A DNA stretch of 19,140 nt from a virus (taxonomy: Duplodnaviria > Heunggongvirae > Uroviricota > Caudoviricetes): positions 1 to 19,140 of IMG/VR virus record IMGVR_UViG_2778261300_000006; one strand, 5' to 3'. Position 1 is the first letter of the stretch, and every line of letters begins with the position of its first letter. Shown here one piece after another: positions 6,277-11,823 of the stretch. The notes beneath the pieces are model-generated. The model saw nothing but the letters and a program-made list of their open reading frames with translations. It ran no database searches and had not been told where the DNA came from. The translations under genes and the position numbers were made by a program.

Positions 6277-6527
6277 TGAAAGAATACCGCTATTCCGGCC
6301 CGGCCAGCGGCGTCACGCTGTCGGACGGAACCGAAATCCTGCTCTGGCCGGGGAAGACGGTTTCCCTGCCGGAGGAGCATGAATACGTGAAGGTACTGGT
6401 GGCGCTGAAGCATCTGACGCCGGTACCAGAAGATACTAAACCCGCCGTCACACCGGCTGTGCAGTCACCAAAGCGCAGAAGCAGCAGTGACAGCGAAGTG
6501 AAAACGGAGGACTCCCATGGCAGCTAA
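6276..6527 (+). CDS. Small protein with a disordered, charged C-terminus (Mu gp38-like position)
   Basis: ATG at 6276 overlaps the upstream TGA. 83 aa. The 3' end overlaps the sheath gene start by 11 nt. Confidence 0.4.
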   Translation: MKEYRYSGPASGVTLSDGTEILLWPGKTVSLPEEHEYVKVLVALKHLTPVPEDTKPAVTPAVQSPKRRSSSDSEVKTEDSHGS

Positions 6528-7944
6528 CTATCTGCATGGCGTCGAAACCATTGAGGTGGAAAACGGAGCCCGCCCGGTTAAAACGGTGAAATCTGCCGTT
6601 ATTGGCCTGATTGGTACCGCCCCGATGGGGGATGTCAATACGCTGGTACAGTGCCTGTCTGAGAAAGACGCTGCGGCATTTGGCAGCCAGTTCACCGGCT
6701 TTACCATTCCGCAGGCGCTGGATGCGATTTATGACCATGGTGCAGGCACCGTTCTGGTCATTAACGTACTCGATCCGTCTGTGCATAAAACCGCTGTGGT
6801 CAGTGAGAATGTGTCGTTCGACAAGGCGACAGGCAGAGCCCGGCTGGCTAATCCGGTGGTCGCGCAGCTGGTACTGAAACCGGACAGCGACGGTCAGCCT
6901 TATGTTGAAGGTCAGGACTACTCGCTTGATGCACAGACCGGGGTGATTACTAACCTGGGTAAAAGCATTGCTGCAGATGCAACGGTGAAGGCCAGCTATA
7001 ACTATGCTGATCCGACCAAAGTCACCCCGGCTGATATCATCGGTACCGTTAACGCTGCAGGCAACCGTACCGGCATGAAGCTGCTTAACGACAGTTTTAA
7101 CCTGTTTGGCTACTTCGCCAAAATCCTGATTGCTCCGGTATTCTGCACCCAGAACAGCGTCTCGGTTGAGCTTATCGCCATGGCTGAGAAACTGGGAGCA
7201 GTAACCTATATTGATGCGCCGGTTGGTACCACTTTTGCGCAGGCTCTGGCGGGACGTGGCCCGGAAGGCACCATTAACTTTAATACCAGCTCTGACCGTG
7301 TCCGCCTGTGCTACCCGCATGTGAAGGTATATGACCCGGTGACGAACACGGAGCGTCTGGAGCCACTGAGCCAGCGTGCGGCGGGCCTGCGTGCCAAAGT
7401 CGACCTGGACAAAGGGTACTGGTGGTCATCCTCCAATCAGGAAATTCTGGGGATCACCGGCGTGGAGCGCCAGCTGTCGGCAATGATTGACGATCCGCAG
7501 AGCGAGGTGAACCTGCTTAACGAACAGGGGATCACCACGGTATTCAGCAGTTACGGCAGCGGCCTTCGTCTGTGGGGTAACCGGACGGCAGCATGGCCAA
7601 CGGTCACCCATATGCGTAACTTTGAGAACGTTCGCCGCACCGGTGATGTGATCAACGAGTCCATTCGTTACTTCAGCCAGCAGTACATCGACATGCCGAT
7701 TACTCAGGCGCTGATTGATGCACTGACGGAGTCGGTCAACGCCTACGGTCGCAAAATGACTGGTGATGGTGCGGTACTGGGCTTCCGTTGCTGGTTTGAT
7801 CCGGCCCGCAATCCGGAGACGGAGCTGGCCGCCGGGCACCTGTTGCTGAGCTACAAATATACGCCACCACCGCCGCTGGAGCGACTGACGTTTGAGACTG
7901 AAATCACCTCGGAATACCTGTTAACCCTGAAAGGGGGCAACTGA
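6517..7944 (+). CDS. Contractile tail sheath protein
   Basis: 475 aa with RBS GGAGG 6 nt upstream. Size and position are right for a myovirus sheath, and it is followed immediately by a tube-sized gene. Sequence is reminiscent of Mu L / P2 FI-type sheath proteins. Confidence 0.85.
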   Translation: MAANYLHGVETIEVENGARPVKTVKSAVIGLIGTAPMGDVNTLVQCLSEKDAAAFGSQFTGFTIPQALDAIYDHGAGTVLVINVLDPSVHKTAVVSENVSFDKATGRARLANPVVAQLVLKPDSDGQPYVEGQDYSLDAQTGVITNLGKSIAADATVKASYNYADPTKVTPADIIGTVNAAGNRTGMKLLNDSFNLFGYFAKILIAPVFCTQNSVSVELIAMAEKLGAVTYIDAPVGTTFAQALAGRGPEGTINFNTSSDRVRLCYPHVKVYDPVTNTERLEPLSQRAAGLRAKVDLDKGYWWSSSNQEILGITGVERQLSAMIDDPQSEVNLLNEQGITTVFSSYGSGLRLWGNRTAAWPTVTHMRNFENVRRTGDVINESIRYFSQQYIDMPITQALIDALTESVNAYGRKMTGDGAVLGFRCWFDPARNPETELAAGHLLLSYKYTPPPPLERLTFETEITSEYLLTLKGGN

Positions 7945-8465
7945 TGTCAAAGATTGAGATAAACCGAATCACGAATGCCAACATCTATCTGGATGGTACT
8001 AACCTGCTGGGACGGGCTGAGGAAGTTAAACTCCCCGATGTCTCCATGATTATGCAGGAGCACAAGGCACTGGGGATGGTGGGTAAGGTGGAACTCCCGG
8101 CTGGTTTTGACAAACTGGAAGGCGAAATCAAATGGAACAGCTTTTACCGCGATGCGATGTTGTCTGCCGCGAACCCGTACAAGTCGCTGGCGCTGCAGTG
8201 TCGCTCCAGCGTCCAGCGCTACAGCTCGCAGGGGCTGATCGACGAAATCCCGCTGGTCACCTTCCTGACAATTATGTTCAAGAAGAACCCGCTGGGGACG
8301 TTCAAACAGCACGAGAACGCCGAGTTCTCCAGTAGCTTCACCTGCACGTATATCAGACAGGTACTGGATGGTGAAGAGTTGCTGCAACTGGACTATCTGG
8401 CCAACATCTTCCGCGTCGGTGGCGTTGATCAACTGACTGACTATCGAATCAATATCGGGGGCTGA
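7944..8465 (+). CDS. Tail tube protein
   Basis: 173 aa. ATG overlaps the sheath stop (TGATG) and RBS AAGGGGG lies upstream. Canonical position after the sheath. Confidence 0.8.
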   Translation: MSKIEINRITNANIYLDGTNLLGRAEEVKLPDVSMIMQEHKALGMVGKVELPAGFDKLEGEIKWNSFYRDAMLSAANPYKSLALQCRSSVQRYSSQGLIDEIPLVTFLTIMFKKNPLGTFKQHENAEFSSSFTCTYIRQVLDGEELLQLDYLANIFRVGGVDQLTDYRINIGG

Positions 8466-8467
8466 CG

Positions 8468-8749
8468 GTGAGTGTTGAACTGACTGACAAAGGAGGGCGA
8501 TGTGCGTCACTGGGCATGTCAAATGGTACGTGGTTTACCCTCCTTGATATTCCGGGGGTGGAGACCCTCTTTAATACCCGTAAAACCAATGACCCGATTG
8601 ACTGCACACGTTCAAAGGCCCGCAAACTGGCCGATTTGATTGAAGCATGGGAGCCGCCCGACCAGTGGTTCTCCGGCACCGGCAACTCTGAGGGAAAGGC
8701 GCTTCTCATCGCTTTCCTGCGTAACTGCAAGGGTTTTCGCACTTGCTGA
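8468..8749 (+). CDS. Hypothetical small protein between tube and chaperone genes
   Basis: 93-aa ORF with GTG start at 8468 (alternative in-frame ATG at 8516). No recognisable family. Followed directly by a terminator-like hairpin. Confidence 0.3.
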   Translation: MSVELTDKGGRCASLGMSNGTWFTLLDIPGVETLFNTRKTNDPIDCTRSKARKLADLIEAWEPPDQWFSGTGNSEGKALLIAFLRNCKGFRTC

Positions 8750-8756
8750 CATCACA

Positions 8757-8778
8757 GGGGCTCCGGCCCCTTCTTTTT
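8757..8778 (+). terminator. Rho-independent terminator-like hairpin inside the tail operon
   Basis: GGGGC-tccg-GCCCC stem-loop (8757..8770) followed by TTCTTTTT (8771..8778). Confidence 0.45.
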
Positions 8779-8846
8779 AATCCCCTTTAATATCCGTCAC
8801 GTCCACCGCCAGACATACTGCTCTGAATTTACAAAGGAGTATGATC

Positions 8847-9182
8847 ATGTCACAGACCCAGTCCGATACTTTTACGCTGTCTTATCCTTTCACCACTGCT
8901 GCAGGTACCAGAATTGAACAGATTGAACTGAAACGCCTGACAGTAAAAGACCTGAAGCAGGTGCGCAAAATCAACAAAGACCCGACAGACTGGGACGAAC
9001 CACTGATTGCCCGTAGCACCGGTATCCTCCCGGAAGACCTCGATAACATGGATCTTGCCGACTATATGGAGCTGCAGAAACGATTTCAGAAAATCACTGG
9101 GCTGGGCAAGAGCGACAAAAACACTGATGCAGGTGCAGGGCCTGCTGGCGAGATGGTTCAGGTTTCAACCGGGGGAGATTGA
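8847..9182 (+). CDS. Tail assembly chaperone (P2 gpE / lambda gpG-type), upstream frame
   Basis: ATG at 8847 with AAGGAG 7 nt upstream (the 8841 ATG is too close to the RBS). Small acidic protein directly upstream of the tape measure gene, with an overlapping out-of-frame ORF, the hallmark of the conserved chaperone frameshift pair. Confidence 0.65.
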   Translation: MSQTQSDTFTLSYPFTTAAGTRIEQIELKRLTVKDLKQVRKINKDPTDWDEPLIARSTGILPEDLDNMDLADYMELQKRFQKITGLGKSDKNTDAGAGPAGEMVQVSTGGD

Positions 9183-9264
9183 TGCCCTCGATACTGACGA
9201 TCTGGAGATGTGGCTGGAGCAGGCTGAAGAGCAAATCAAAAGCGAGTTCGGCGACAATCAGTAA
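9007..9264 (+). CDS. Frameshift extension of the tail assembly chaperone (E'-like C-terminal extension)
   Basis: ORF in the +1 frame relative to 8847..9182, overlapping its 3' end. It encodes an acidic helical tail (...IDALDTDDLEMWLEQAEEQIKSEFGDNQ). It has no plausible independent start (TTG in the track). Only the 3' part (roughly 9170..9264) would be translated after the shift. Confidence 0.45.
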   Translation: MPVAPVSSRKTSITWILPTIWSCRNDFRKSLGWARATKTLMQVQGLLARWFRFQPGEIDALDTDDLEMWLEQAEEQIKSEFGDNQ

Positions 9265-9357
9265 CAACGTATCACTTAACAGCCGCCAGTCGCGGCTGTT
9301 CTGCATGGGTTTCAGACACTTCCCTTCCGTTTTTTTTGCTTTCAGAGGATAGCCACC

Positions 9358-11823
9358 GTGGCCAGTGAATTTTCAGTCGGCGTCATTATTGGCGGCATTG
9401 TCGGGAGCAGCTTCCGCTCAGCCGTCAGTGGCACCCGACGCGCCCTTGATTCCCTTGGTGATACCTCCCGCCGTCTGCAGGAACGCCAGAATGCCTTAAC
9501 CCGGGCAACAGAACGTTATGGTCAACTGGGTTCTTCCCGGATGCAGCATCTCAACAGCGAGTTGCTGCGGGTAAGCCGCACCATGGAGCAAATTGAACGT
9601 CAGCAGCGCCGTCTGTCAGCAGTATCAGCCACCGGTGATGCGTTGAAGGCTAACCGCCTGGCGCTCTATGGTCAGGGTGCAGAAACCTATGCTATTGGCA
9701 GAACGCTGGGCGCACCGGTCATGGCCTCGGTTAAACAATATGCCTCGTTTGAATCACAGTTGCGGGATATCAGTGTCACAGGAGACCTGGATGCAAAACA
9801 GGAACGTGCAATTGGCCAGGCTATCAGACAGGCCTCGCTGAAGGTTAACCAACTGCAGGAGTCTCTGTTAGGGGGAGTCGGACAATTAGTTGCTGATGGT
9901 ATGGCCCCCGAACGGGCAGCAACGTTTGCAGAGATGCTTGGAAAGACCGCTACAGCAACCAAAGCCGATATGACCGACCTTGCCAAAATGACTTATGCCT
10001 TCAGCGATGCACTCAGAATCACTGATGCGAAAGAACTTGAACAGGCGTTTGGTATTGCGGCAACAGGAGCCAAACTTGGGTCATTTGAGCTGAAGGATAT
10101 GGCAAAAGCATTACCCGGTATGGCTAAAGCCTTCGCTGCTCGTGGTATTTATGGAAAAGATGCGATTACCCAGATTGTTGCCAGTCTGGAGGTCGGTAAA
10201 GGTAGTGGCTCTGCAGAGGAAGCGGTCACCAATATGTCCAACTGGCTGGCAGCAATGGGCCGCGGAGATACCATCCAGAAATATGCTAAAGCCGGGGTGG
10301 ATTACCAGGGGTCAATGCAGAATTACGTCGCTCAGGGTTTTTCGCAGTACGAAGCTTCACTGATGATTGCCAACCGTTTTATCGACAGTAAAGGCAAAGC
10401 GTTCTTGCAGCAATGGAAAGCTGCAGGAGCAAGAGGCGATCAGGAAGGTCAGCAGAAACTCATGGAGTCATTTGGTCTGGCTGAGGTCTTTACCGATATT
10501 CAGACTGTCAACCATTTACTGTCAATGCGACAGGGCTGGGATAAATACCTTTCCAGTAAGCAGGAAATGAATACTCCGGCTGCAATGTCTACCCTGGATA
10601 AGGATGCTGCAAAGCAGAATGATACGCTTGAAGGTCGCTGGCGCAGAATGCAGATCGGCTTTAATGATTCTGCTATCAGCATCGGGCAATCCTTGCGTCC
10701 GGCTTTGCTCCAGTTGGGTGAAACATTTATTCCTTTAATGGACAGTGTTGGCAAATGGATAGCGGCAAATCCGCAGCTCGTCAGCAGCACCATAAAGGTT
10801 GTGGGCGCATTACTCGCTTTCAGGATGGCCACTATCGGTCTCAAGCTTGGGCTGAATCTCCTTCTTTCCCCCTTTGTAAGCGTCTGGAAAAATGCTGTTT
10901 TACTTCGGGCCAACTGGCTTCGTCTGACGCTCGCACTGGGGGAAGGCGGTAAACTCCGCTGGCTGGTGACAGGCTTTGGTGCTGTCGCCAGAGGAGCCAG
11001 AACACTGGGTGGTGTGCTCTCAGGGGGGCTGGTTCGCGGAATTATGAGCGCCGGGCGTGCCGTTCTCTGGATTGGCCGGGCGCTGCTGATGAATCCCATC
11101 GGTCTCGTTATCACCGCCGTCGCGGCAGCAGCTTACCTTATCTACCGCAACTGGGGCGCAGTCAGTAGCTGGTTTAAACAGCGCTGGGCTGACATTCAGG
11201 AAGCCTTTAACGGCGGCATCGTGGGAATTGGTAAACTGCTGGTTAACTGGTCTCCGGCTGGTCTGCTTTATAAAGCCTTTGCGGCTGCGCTGAAATATCT
11301 CGGCGTTGATCTGCCGGCGAAATTCACCGACTTCGGTGGTCATCTTATTGACGGGTTGATAAATGGCATCAGAAACAAATGGGCGTCACTCAAAACCAGC
11401 GTAACCGGAATGGGTGACAGCATCAGTGACTGGTTCAGCGAAAAGCTGGGCATCCATTCACCGAGTCGCGTGTTTATGGGCTTTGGTGACAATATCGCGC
11501 AGGGTGCCGCCATTGGCCTGCAACGGACCACTCCGCTTGCTGCACTGGCCGGGCAGCGCCTGGCCGCTGAAATGACACCGGATGTTCCCCGTATCCCGTC
11601 GCCGGAAATCATGGCTGCCGGATATTCAGGCCGTGGCGCAACTGCAACCGGCGGTGGAGCGTCTGGCGGTATCCAGGTCAGCTTTAATCCTCAGTTTTTC
11701 CTCAATGGTAAGGAAACCGCAGCGCCTGCCGGGCTGGCTGGTGCCCTGAATATGAGCCTGCATGAGCTGGAAAAAATGCTGGAGCGTCTGCTGGCTCAGA
11801 AACAACGTAAGGAGTACAGCTGA
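9358..11823 (+). CDS. Tail tape measure protein
   Basis: 821 aa. GTG start with AGAGGA 8 nt upstream. Long helical N-terminal region, Gly/Ala-rich hydrophobic central segments and overall architecture typical of tape measure proteins. Confidence 0.85.
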   Translation: MASEFSVGVIIGGIVGSSFRSAVSGTRRALDSLGDTSRRLQERQNALTRATERYGQLGSSRMQHLNSELLRVSRTMEQIERQQRRLSAVSATGDALKANRLALYGQGAETYAIGRTLGAPVMASVKQYASFESQLRDISVTGDLDAKQERAIGQAIRQASLKVNQLQESLLGGVGQLVADGMAPERAATFAEMLGKTATATKADMTDLAKMTYAFSDALRITDAKELEQAFGIAATGAKLGSFELKDMAKALPGMAKAFAARGIYGKDAITQIVASLEVGKGSGSAEEAVTNMSNWLAAMGRGDTIQKYAKAGVDYQGSMQNYVAQGFSQYEASLMIANRFIDSKGKAFLQQWKAAGARGDQEGQQKLMESFGLAEVFTDIQTVNHLLSMRQGWDKYLSSKQEMNTPAAMSTLDKDAAKQNDTLEGRWRRMQIGFNDSAISIGQSLRPALLQLGETFIPLMDSVGKWIAANPQLVSSTIKVVGALLAFRMATIGLKLGLNLLLSPFVSVWKNAVLLRANWLRLTLALGEGGKLRWLVTGFGAVARGARTLGGVLSGGLVRGIMSAGRAVLWIGRALLMNPIGLVITAVAAAAYLIYRNWGAVSSWFKQRWADIQEAFNGGIVGIGKLLVNWSPAGLLYKAFAAALKYLGVDLPAKFTDFGGHLIDGLINGIRNKWASLKTSVTGMGDSISDWFSEKLGIHSPSRVFMGFGDNIAQGAAIGLQRTTPLAALAGQRLAAEMTPDVPRIPSPEIMAAGYSGRGATATGGGASGGIQVSFNPQFFLNGKETAAPAGLAGALNMSLHELEKMLERLLAQKQRKEYS

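Follow-up and report, generated by a model that had tools for sequence, protein, structure and literature searches.

The conserved frameshift of the tail assembly chaperone genes is textbook knowledge, and its direction differs between phages. In phage Mu, a −2 frameshift at CGG_GGG_CGA in gp41/Mu_56 was reportedly verified by Xu, Hendrix and Duda in 2004. The efficiency of the Mu −2 shift is approximately 2.2% (PMC3498833). In lambda (gpG/gpGT) and P2 (gpE/gpE+E′), both products bind the tape-measure protein via a common N-terminal domain, the rare long form adds a domain that engages the tail tube, and neither product ends up in the virion (PMC5009743). For the +1 direction, several hundred actinobacteriophages carry annotated chaperone frameshifts, and a haloarchaeal myovirus has been suggested as a further case (PMC10274946, PMC5009743). 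Outside the phage tail genes, UUU followed by a pyrimidine is prone to +1 shifting in E. coli, an example being UUU_UAU of argI, and weak E-site pairing has been reported to favour such shifts (PMC2790909). The influenza PA-X site reads UCC_UUU_CGU (PMC3498833).

The locus described here lies in a stretch of 19,140 nucleotides, referred to below as the window. The long form of its tail chaperone is probably made by a ribosomal +1 frameshift at CGA_UUU_C, in which tRNA-Phe would move from UUU to UUC and generate a 138-aa fusion resembling gpE+E′. The proposed signal is as follows.

9081..9087, plus strand: proposed +1 frameshift signal CGA_UUU_C, comprising Arg79, Phe80 and the first base of codon 81; proposed from conservation and from the positional bracket.

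The window is the late region, containing head and tail genes, of a Mu/BcepMu-like E. coli prophage and has 99.9% identity to E. coli 2014C-3075. The region was found in 642 of 5426 complete E. coli genomes and also in many other Enterobacterales and Burkholderiales prophages. The tail genes surrounding the chaperone are listed below.

6517-7944: sheath.
7944-8465: tube (PF04985).
8468-8749: small DUF7739 ORF.
9358-11823: tape measure (PF10145).

The chaperone ORF and the overlapping +1 ORF, which ends at 9264, sit between the tube and the tape measure. Genes for gpU-like and gpD-like proteins come after the tape measure. The ORF at 8468-8749, between tube and chaperone, encodes a conserved protein of 93 aa and of unknown function. 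It matches DUF7739 below threshold and phrog_1239 with E = 2.8e-47, and is shared with KP12, PhiKM and E. coli prophages. Between this ORF and the chaperone gene there is a terminator-like hairpin at 8756-8780 (AGGGGCTCCGGCCCCT followed by TCTTTTT), falling midway in what would be expected to be a single tail operon. A perfect 9-bp hairpin (AACAGCCGC and GCGGCTGTT, with a 5-nt loop) is located at 9278-9300, between the E′ stop at 9264 and the tape-measure start at 9358. KP12 and PhiKM retain its stem, with differing loops, and a T-run does not follow directly on the 3′ side.

The short product is read in what is termed here frame 0.

8834..8839, plus strand: Shine-Dalgarno sequence AAGGAG, 7 nt 5′ of the ATG at 8847; read from the sequence.
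8847..9182, plus strand: frame-0 tail assembly chaperone, short product of 111 aa, similar to P2 gpE and Mu gp41; assigned from PF10109, phrog_166 and synteny.

The start at 8847 matches the RefSeq gene model WP_000084230.1. The chaperone scores 78.4 bits (cut-off 25) over residues 8-82 against Pfam PF10109 (Phage_TAC_7), the family described as ‘Phage tail assembly chaperone proteins, E, or 41 or 14’, and also matches phrog_166, ‘tail protein’. The end of the Pfam chaperone domain is marked by F80. The part of frame 0 that follows the proposed site comprises 31 codons in the window, and this tail varies in both sequence and length among homologues. In most of them frame 0 ends in ...GEVV with the stop at window-equivalent 9159-9161. 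A 90-aa variant, represented by a protein cluster on 914 contigs and also by loci L046 and L047, ends at window-equivalent 9117-9119 (codon 91, TAG).

The extension is carried by the second, overlapping frame.

9088..9264, plus strand: +1-frame extension of 58 codons and a stop; supported by translation, third-position variability and phrog_8286 (E = 1.6e-28).
9115..9255, plus strand: E′-like domain, homologue of P2 GpE/PF06528; supported by hhalign and Pfam PF06528.

The initial annotation had placed the extension ORF (9007..9264) at an offset of +1 from the chaperone ORF starting at 8847, and the arithmetic agrees, as (9007−8847) mod 3 = 1. The homologues gathered comprised 77 loci from IMG/VR, 29 loci from GTDB genomes, several phages from GenBank and 17 further loci retrieved by querying with a Ralstonia phage. 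Across 61 aligned unique sequences, mean entropy by frame-0 codon position was 0.35/0.29/0.88 over the 150 nt upstream of 9081, 0.55/0.13/0.11 over 9129-9179 and 0.60/0.30/0.30 over 9183-9260. Past the site the pattern changes, and variation is highest at the third positions of +1-frame codons. The peptide read in that frame, ...QAQGLLARWFRFQPGEIDALDTDDLEMWLEQAEEQIKSEFGD.., is nearly invariant in at least 58 unique homologues. As variability falls on +1-frame third positions from approximately 9108 to 9260 and this peptide is nearly invariant, the +1 frame can be regarded as coding, and by this pattern it is under strong purifying selection. The upstream part of the listed ORF, 9007-9084, is not coding in the +1 frame, as homologues have +1-frame stops there.

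The identity of the extension was addressed by profile comparison. The window peptide scores 15.6 bits against Pfam PF06528 (Phage_P2_GpE), which is below the gathering threshold of 23; the Lonsdalea homologue reaches 26.0 bits, the Pasteurellaceae homologues 31-52 and P2 E′ itself 78.7. An hhalign comparison of nine +1 extensions with the E′ sequences of P2 and Pasteurellaceae gave a probability of 98.3% and E = 1.5e-14 over 47 columns, corresponding to 9115-9255 of the window, and the start of the E′-homologous domain falls at approximately 9115-9136. Judged by these profiles, the extension is homologous to the E′ domain of P2.

A coding +1 frame could also be expressed with no recoding at all, either by independent translation as an E′-only protein or by transcriptional slippage. 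The +1 frame of the window does contain an ATG, at 9127, and the ORF is listed separately by some gene callers (phrog_8286; P0092, P0093). However, only about half of the homologues share that ATG, 5 of the 61 contain no ATG, GTG or TTG anywhere between the site and the domain, and an SD-like sequence was present upstream in just one of the 61. Conservation of the +1 frame also reaches upstream of 9127, with an invariant W at 9103 and an invariant L at 9124 in the 61-sequence alignment. Slippage would have to occur on a run of three T residues, a length which is insufficient for the polymerase to slip. Independent initiation of the +1 ORF therefore has little to stand on in the homologues and appears unlikely, and the chance that either of these routes accounts for the extension is put as slim.

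For a ribosomal shift, the position can be bracketed from the homologues. In Ralstonia, Pandoraea and related phages, a +1-frame TGA is found 11 nt 5′ of the TTT (window-equivalent 9073-9075), and the +1 frame opens only three codons before the TTT. This TGA on one side, and on the other the frame-0 stop that further homologues carry at 9117, confine any site conserved in position to 9076-9119. CGATTTC at 9081-9087 is the sole conserved element of that bracket, and has zero entropy at 7/7 positions among the 61 aligned unique homologues. The signal was counted over 124 loci, representing 70 unique 130-nt contexts from phages of Enterobacterales and Burkholderiales. TTT was present in 70/70 of these contexts and the next base was C in 70/70; the codon before TTT was CGA in 69/70 and CGG in the remaining one (L101). 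The codon preceding CGA occurs in ten forms (AAA, AAG, ACC, GCC, CGT, GGT, GCA, GTA, GCG, GAC), and identity between chaperones sharing TTT_C can be as low as 37%. Among 18 other codons of the upstream 150 nt that are conserved and degenerate, not one is invariant at its third position. CGA accounts for 6.7% of the Arg codons in the window's genes. In a protein alignment, the site lies within approximately 5 columns of the annotated −1 site of P2 and the verified −2 site of Mu. The tetranucleotide TTT_C alone is non-specific, as 12 in-register copies occur in other genes of the window.

Two further candidates within or next to the bracket were rejected. PhiKM-like homologues lack the A5 run at 9117-9121, considered as a +1 site, and in the 90-aa variant this run coincides with or follows the frame-0 stop. 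GGG_C at 9099 is not conserved in the beta-proteobacterial group.

The initial annotation had looked for the shift much closer to the frame-0 stop, in the zone ACC GGG GGA GAT TGA.

9171..9182, plus strand: G5 run and frame-0 UGA; in the +1 frame encodes part of the Pro-Gly-Glu of E′; not the shift site.

The zone is present as described, and its G5 run (9171-9175) does adjoin the frame-0 stop (9180-9182); it is its role as the shift site that the homologues contradict. According to this proposal, the frame-0 UGA at 9180 would stimulate tRNA-Gly to slip by +1 or −2 on the neighbouring G5 run (GGG GGA, 9171-9176). The run would permit re-pairing in both directions, resembles the verified Mu −2 site CGG_GGG_CGA and is directly 5′ of the window's stop. 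Frame 0 nevertheless stops upstream of the run, at window-equivalent 9159 in most homologues and at codon 91 in the common variant, so frame-0 ribosomes would never reach it there, and distant homologues carry CCG AGT GAG in its place. Slippage at this point would also drop approximately 20 conserved E′ residues, including LLARWFRF, the most conserved motif, since homology to E′ starts some 35-55 nt upstream of the run. Selection on the +1 frame is already visible from approximately 9108. Slippage at the G5 run is accordingly regarded as highly improbable. The shift would instead be placed almost certainly at CGA_UUU_C, approximately 90 bases upstream of the G-run.

The databases contain ‘fusion’ proteins of exactly 138 aa (P0001-P0009) with junctions at either the A5 run (9117) or the G5 run (9171). 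Most come from raw-read assemblies, and locus L076 shares the G-run indel. They were rejected as evidence for the junction, as the homopolymer junctions and raw-read origin indicate that they are probably indel errors rather than biology. A separate case is L095 of Apirhabdus apintestini (CP138906.1, approximately 880-1100), in which loss of one nucleotide, 13 nt before TTT_C, brings chaperone and E′ into one frame (...DYLGCRPDFKKSQGW...). This natural fusion would yield the long form only, and may reflect a defective prophage or a sequencing error.

The direction of the shift was weighed separately. There is no in-register X_XXY_YYZ anywhere in 8847-9182, in agreement with the earlier statement that a canonical heptamer is lacking. 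The companion statement, that a sizeable ORF is missing from the −1 frame, does not strictly hold: an ORF of 57 aa at 9179..9352 occupies it. This −1-frame ORF, which runs across both the E′ region and the intergenic hairpin, is not kept intact in homologues and has no coding signature. The suggestion of +1 or −2 recoding rather than −1 is supported by the frame relation, and between the two the evidence favours +1, at CGA_UUU_C. A −2 shift of the Mu type somewhere in the overlap would result in the same frame and is verified in Mu, which has a related tail module (AF083977 annotation; PMC5009743). Yet no conserved codon in 9076-9119 can re-pair 2 nt upstream (UUU would meet GAU, and CAG would meet UUC), and the Mu extension has no detectable homology to that of the window. 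The −2 shift is consequently given a minimal probability.

A further alternative keeps the +1 direction and moves the event one codon earlier. The rare CGA would pause in the A site and tRNA-Asp would bind GAU (9082-9084) with no re-pairing in the P site, giving the junction ...LQK/DFRKSLGW... CGA is slowly decoded and, as noted, rare, and the single exception to it, in L101, is CGG, likewise a rare Arg codon. Coding of Asp-Phe (GAU UUC) in the +1 frame would explain the invariance of A9083 and T9086, and the position falls within the bracket 9076-9119. On the other hand, the P-site codon would be any one of ten, with no consistent +1 re-pairing. Bacterial +1 frameshifting normally relies on re-pairing in the P site, and UUU_C offers a perfect one. 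A shift at the CGA codon is therefore considered unlikely, if less so than the alternatives above.

The preferred reading remains the shift on UUU_C, and would proceed as follows. Most ribosomes would continue in frame 0 and produce the 111-aa short protein, while a minority would shift +1 at CGA_UUU_C (9081-9087). In these, tRNA-Phe would move from UUU (9084-9086) to UUC (9085-9087), and reading would resume at AGA (9088) and end at the stop at 9262-9264. The predicted fusion is join(8847..9086, 9088..9264), a protein of 138 aa reading ...LQKRF/RKSLGWARATKTLMQVQGLLARWF...DNQ, with the junction ...LQKRF/RKSLGW... As in the shift of prfB, the P-site codon is able to re-pair in the +1 frame, from UUU to UUC in 70/70 contexts; tRNA-Phe (anticodon GAA) pairs with both codons, and the +1 move retains and even improves the pairing.

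The other elements of a prfB-type site are lacking. The 0-frame A-site codon after UUU (CAG, CAA, CUG etc.) is not rare, the codon upstream is variable and no SD-like sequence is present; a conserved SD-like stimulator upstream of the site was not found among the homologues. For RNA structure downstream of or flanking the site, RNAalifold gave a consensus of −5.3 kcal/mol with essentially no covariation in 14 diverse homologues, the single-sequence fold had z = 0.04, and no match was found in Rfam. With no rare A-site codon, SD-like element or conserved RNA structure, the known bacterial +1 stimulators are absent.

The sole candidate stimulator is the invariant CGA. CGU, CGC and CGA are all decoded by one E. 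coli tRNA (ICG), so selection for CGA amounts to selection for its I:A wobble pair. The rare codon may thus act as a 5′ stimulator, either as a weak pair in the E site or by perturbing the A site from the P site. In the P-site version, CGA would push the A-site codon's first base out of place, and tRNA-Phe would then read UUC. Displacement of this kind has so far been discussed for CGA codon pairs of yeast. It is conceivable, and put forward only tentatively, that CGA_UUU_C is a self-contained bacterial +1 signal not previously recognised, stimulated by the I:A wobble of CGA in either the E or the P site.

By analogy with lambda and P2, the short and long products of the window would both have a role in tail assembly. 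The shared N-terminal domain would coat the tape-measure protein, the rare long form would recruit the tail tube, and the efficiency of frameshifting would set the ratio of short to long product. Only the short chaperone is annotated in KP12, PhiKM and RefSeq PGAP. Since RefSeq/PGAP and GenBank list only this product, an essential tail protein would be systematically missing from annotation, and homopolymer sequencing errors are being taken for ‘fusions’. In L115 (NZ_CP027447.1, 9448-9959), the locus tags pass from C6W72_RS12085 (chaperone) to RS12095 (tape measure), a gap which suggests that a former gene call over the E′ ORF was later dropped. NCBIfam contained no model and the PDB no sequence relative. 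Beyond the tables of Xu et al. 2004, which the literature search did not cover and in which an earlier prediction is possible, nothing relevant was found on CGA_UUU_C or on a +1 shift in the gpE/E′ family. The +1 direction and the CGA_UUU_C signal appear to be undescribed in this family and unannotated in RefSeq/GenBank. On the comparative evidence, the feature is a real, functional and unannotated +1 variant of the tail-chaperone frameshift.

Its interest for recoding is twofold. A +1 signal of 7 nt with neither stop codon, SD sequence nor RNA structure would be compact, and the conserved CGA yields the testable prediction that wobble geometry beside a slippery codon affects frame maintenance. 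The locus would also belong to a natural series of homologues that all arrive at two products, some by −1, some by −2 and some by +1 shifts. From its sequences, the gpE/E′ family shows several independent recoding solutions, among them U6G in P2 and G_GGA_AAG in Pasteurellaceae. If CGA_UUU_C is a self-contained signal of the kind suggested above, four would have evolved: two −1 shifts (on U6G and on G_GGA_AAG), a −2 shift on a G-run and a +1 shift on CGA_UUU_C.

One of the closest described systems is gpE/gpE+E′ of P2 (AF063097). Both parts are homologous, comprising a PF10109 chaperone and an E′ (PF06528) extension. The genes occupy the same slot, flanked by the tube and tape-measure genes, both shift sites come where the chaperone domain ends, and the fusions are of similar length, at 142 aa in P2 and 138 aa in the window. 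The two differ in the shift itself, which in P2 is −1 on the U6G heptamer U_UUU_UUG, whereas the shift proposed for the window is +1 on CGA_UUU_C, with no U-run. They also differ in the frame-0 tail after the site, which is 6 codons in P2 and 31 in the window. In the Pasteurellaceae homologues L083 and L111-L114 (Pasteurella phage AFS-2018a, Haemophilus, Pasteurella, Volucribacter and Mannheimia), E′ is in the −1 frame behind the lambda-type heptamer G_GGA_AAG.

With gpG/gpGT of lambda, the window shares two nested products, read from ORFs that overlap shortly before the tape-measure gene. As in lambda-type systems, its second ORF has no conserved start or SD sequence and carries a codon-position signature, here of the +1 frame. 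There is no sequence similarity to lambda G/T, however, and the window differs in its +1 direction and in the absence of a heptamer. The likeness to Mu extends to a Mu-type tail module, an extension in the +1/−2 frame, a rare CGA within the conserved signal and a site that occupies the corresponding position when the chaperones are aligned. In Mu, the A site holds CGA while tRNA-Gly slips by −2 on the G-run; the proposed slip codon of the window is UUU_C, and CGA is 5′ of it. The Mu slip takes place on a G-run in the part that frame 0 still reads, whereas the G5 run of the window is past the frame-0 stop in most homologues and inside E′. Re-pairing by −2 is moreover impossible at the window's conserved site, and the extensions are not detectably homologous.

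In mechanism, though not in membership, the proposed shift resembles those of PA-X and argI, which concern different organisms and genes. Common features are the shift tetranucleotide UUU_C/Y, where tRNA-Phe fits UUU and UUC, a conserved 5′ (E-site) codon of unexplained role, and an event of low efficiency (PMC3498833, PMC2790909). PA-X has its rare codon in the A site, whereas in the window the rare codon, CGA, is on the 5′ side.
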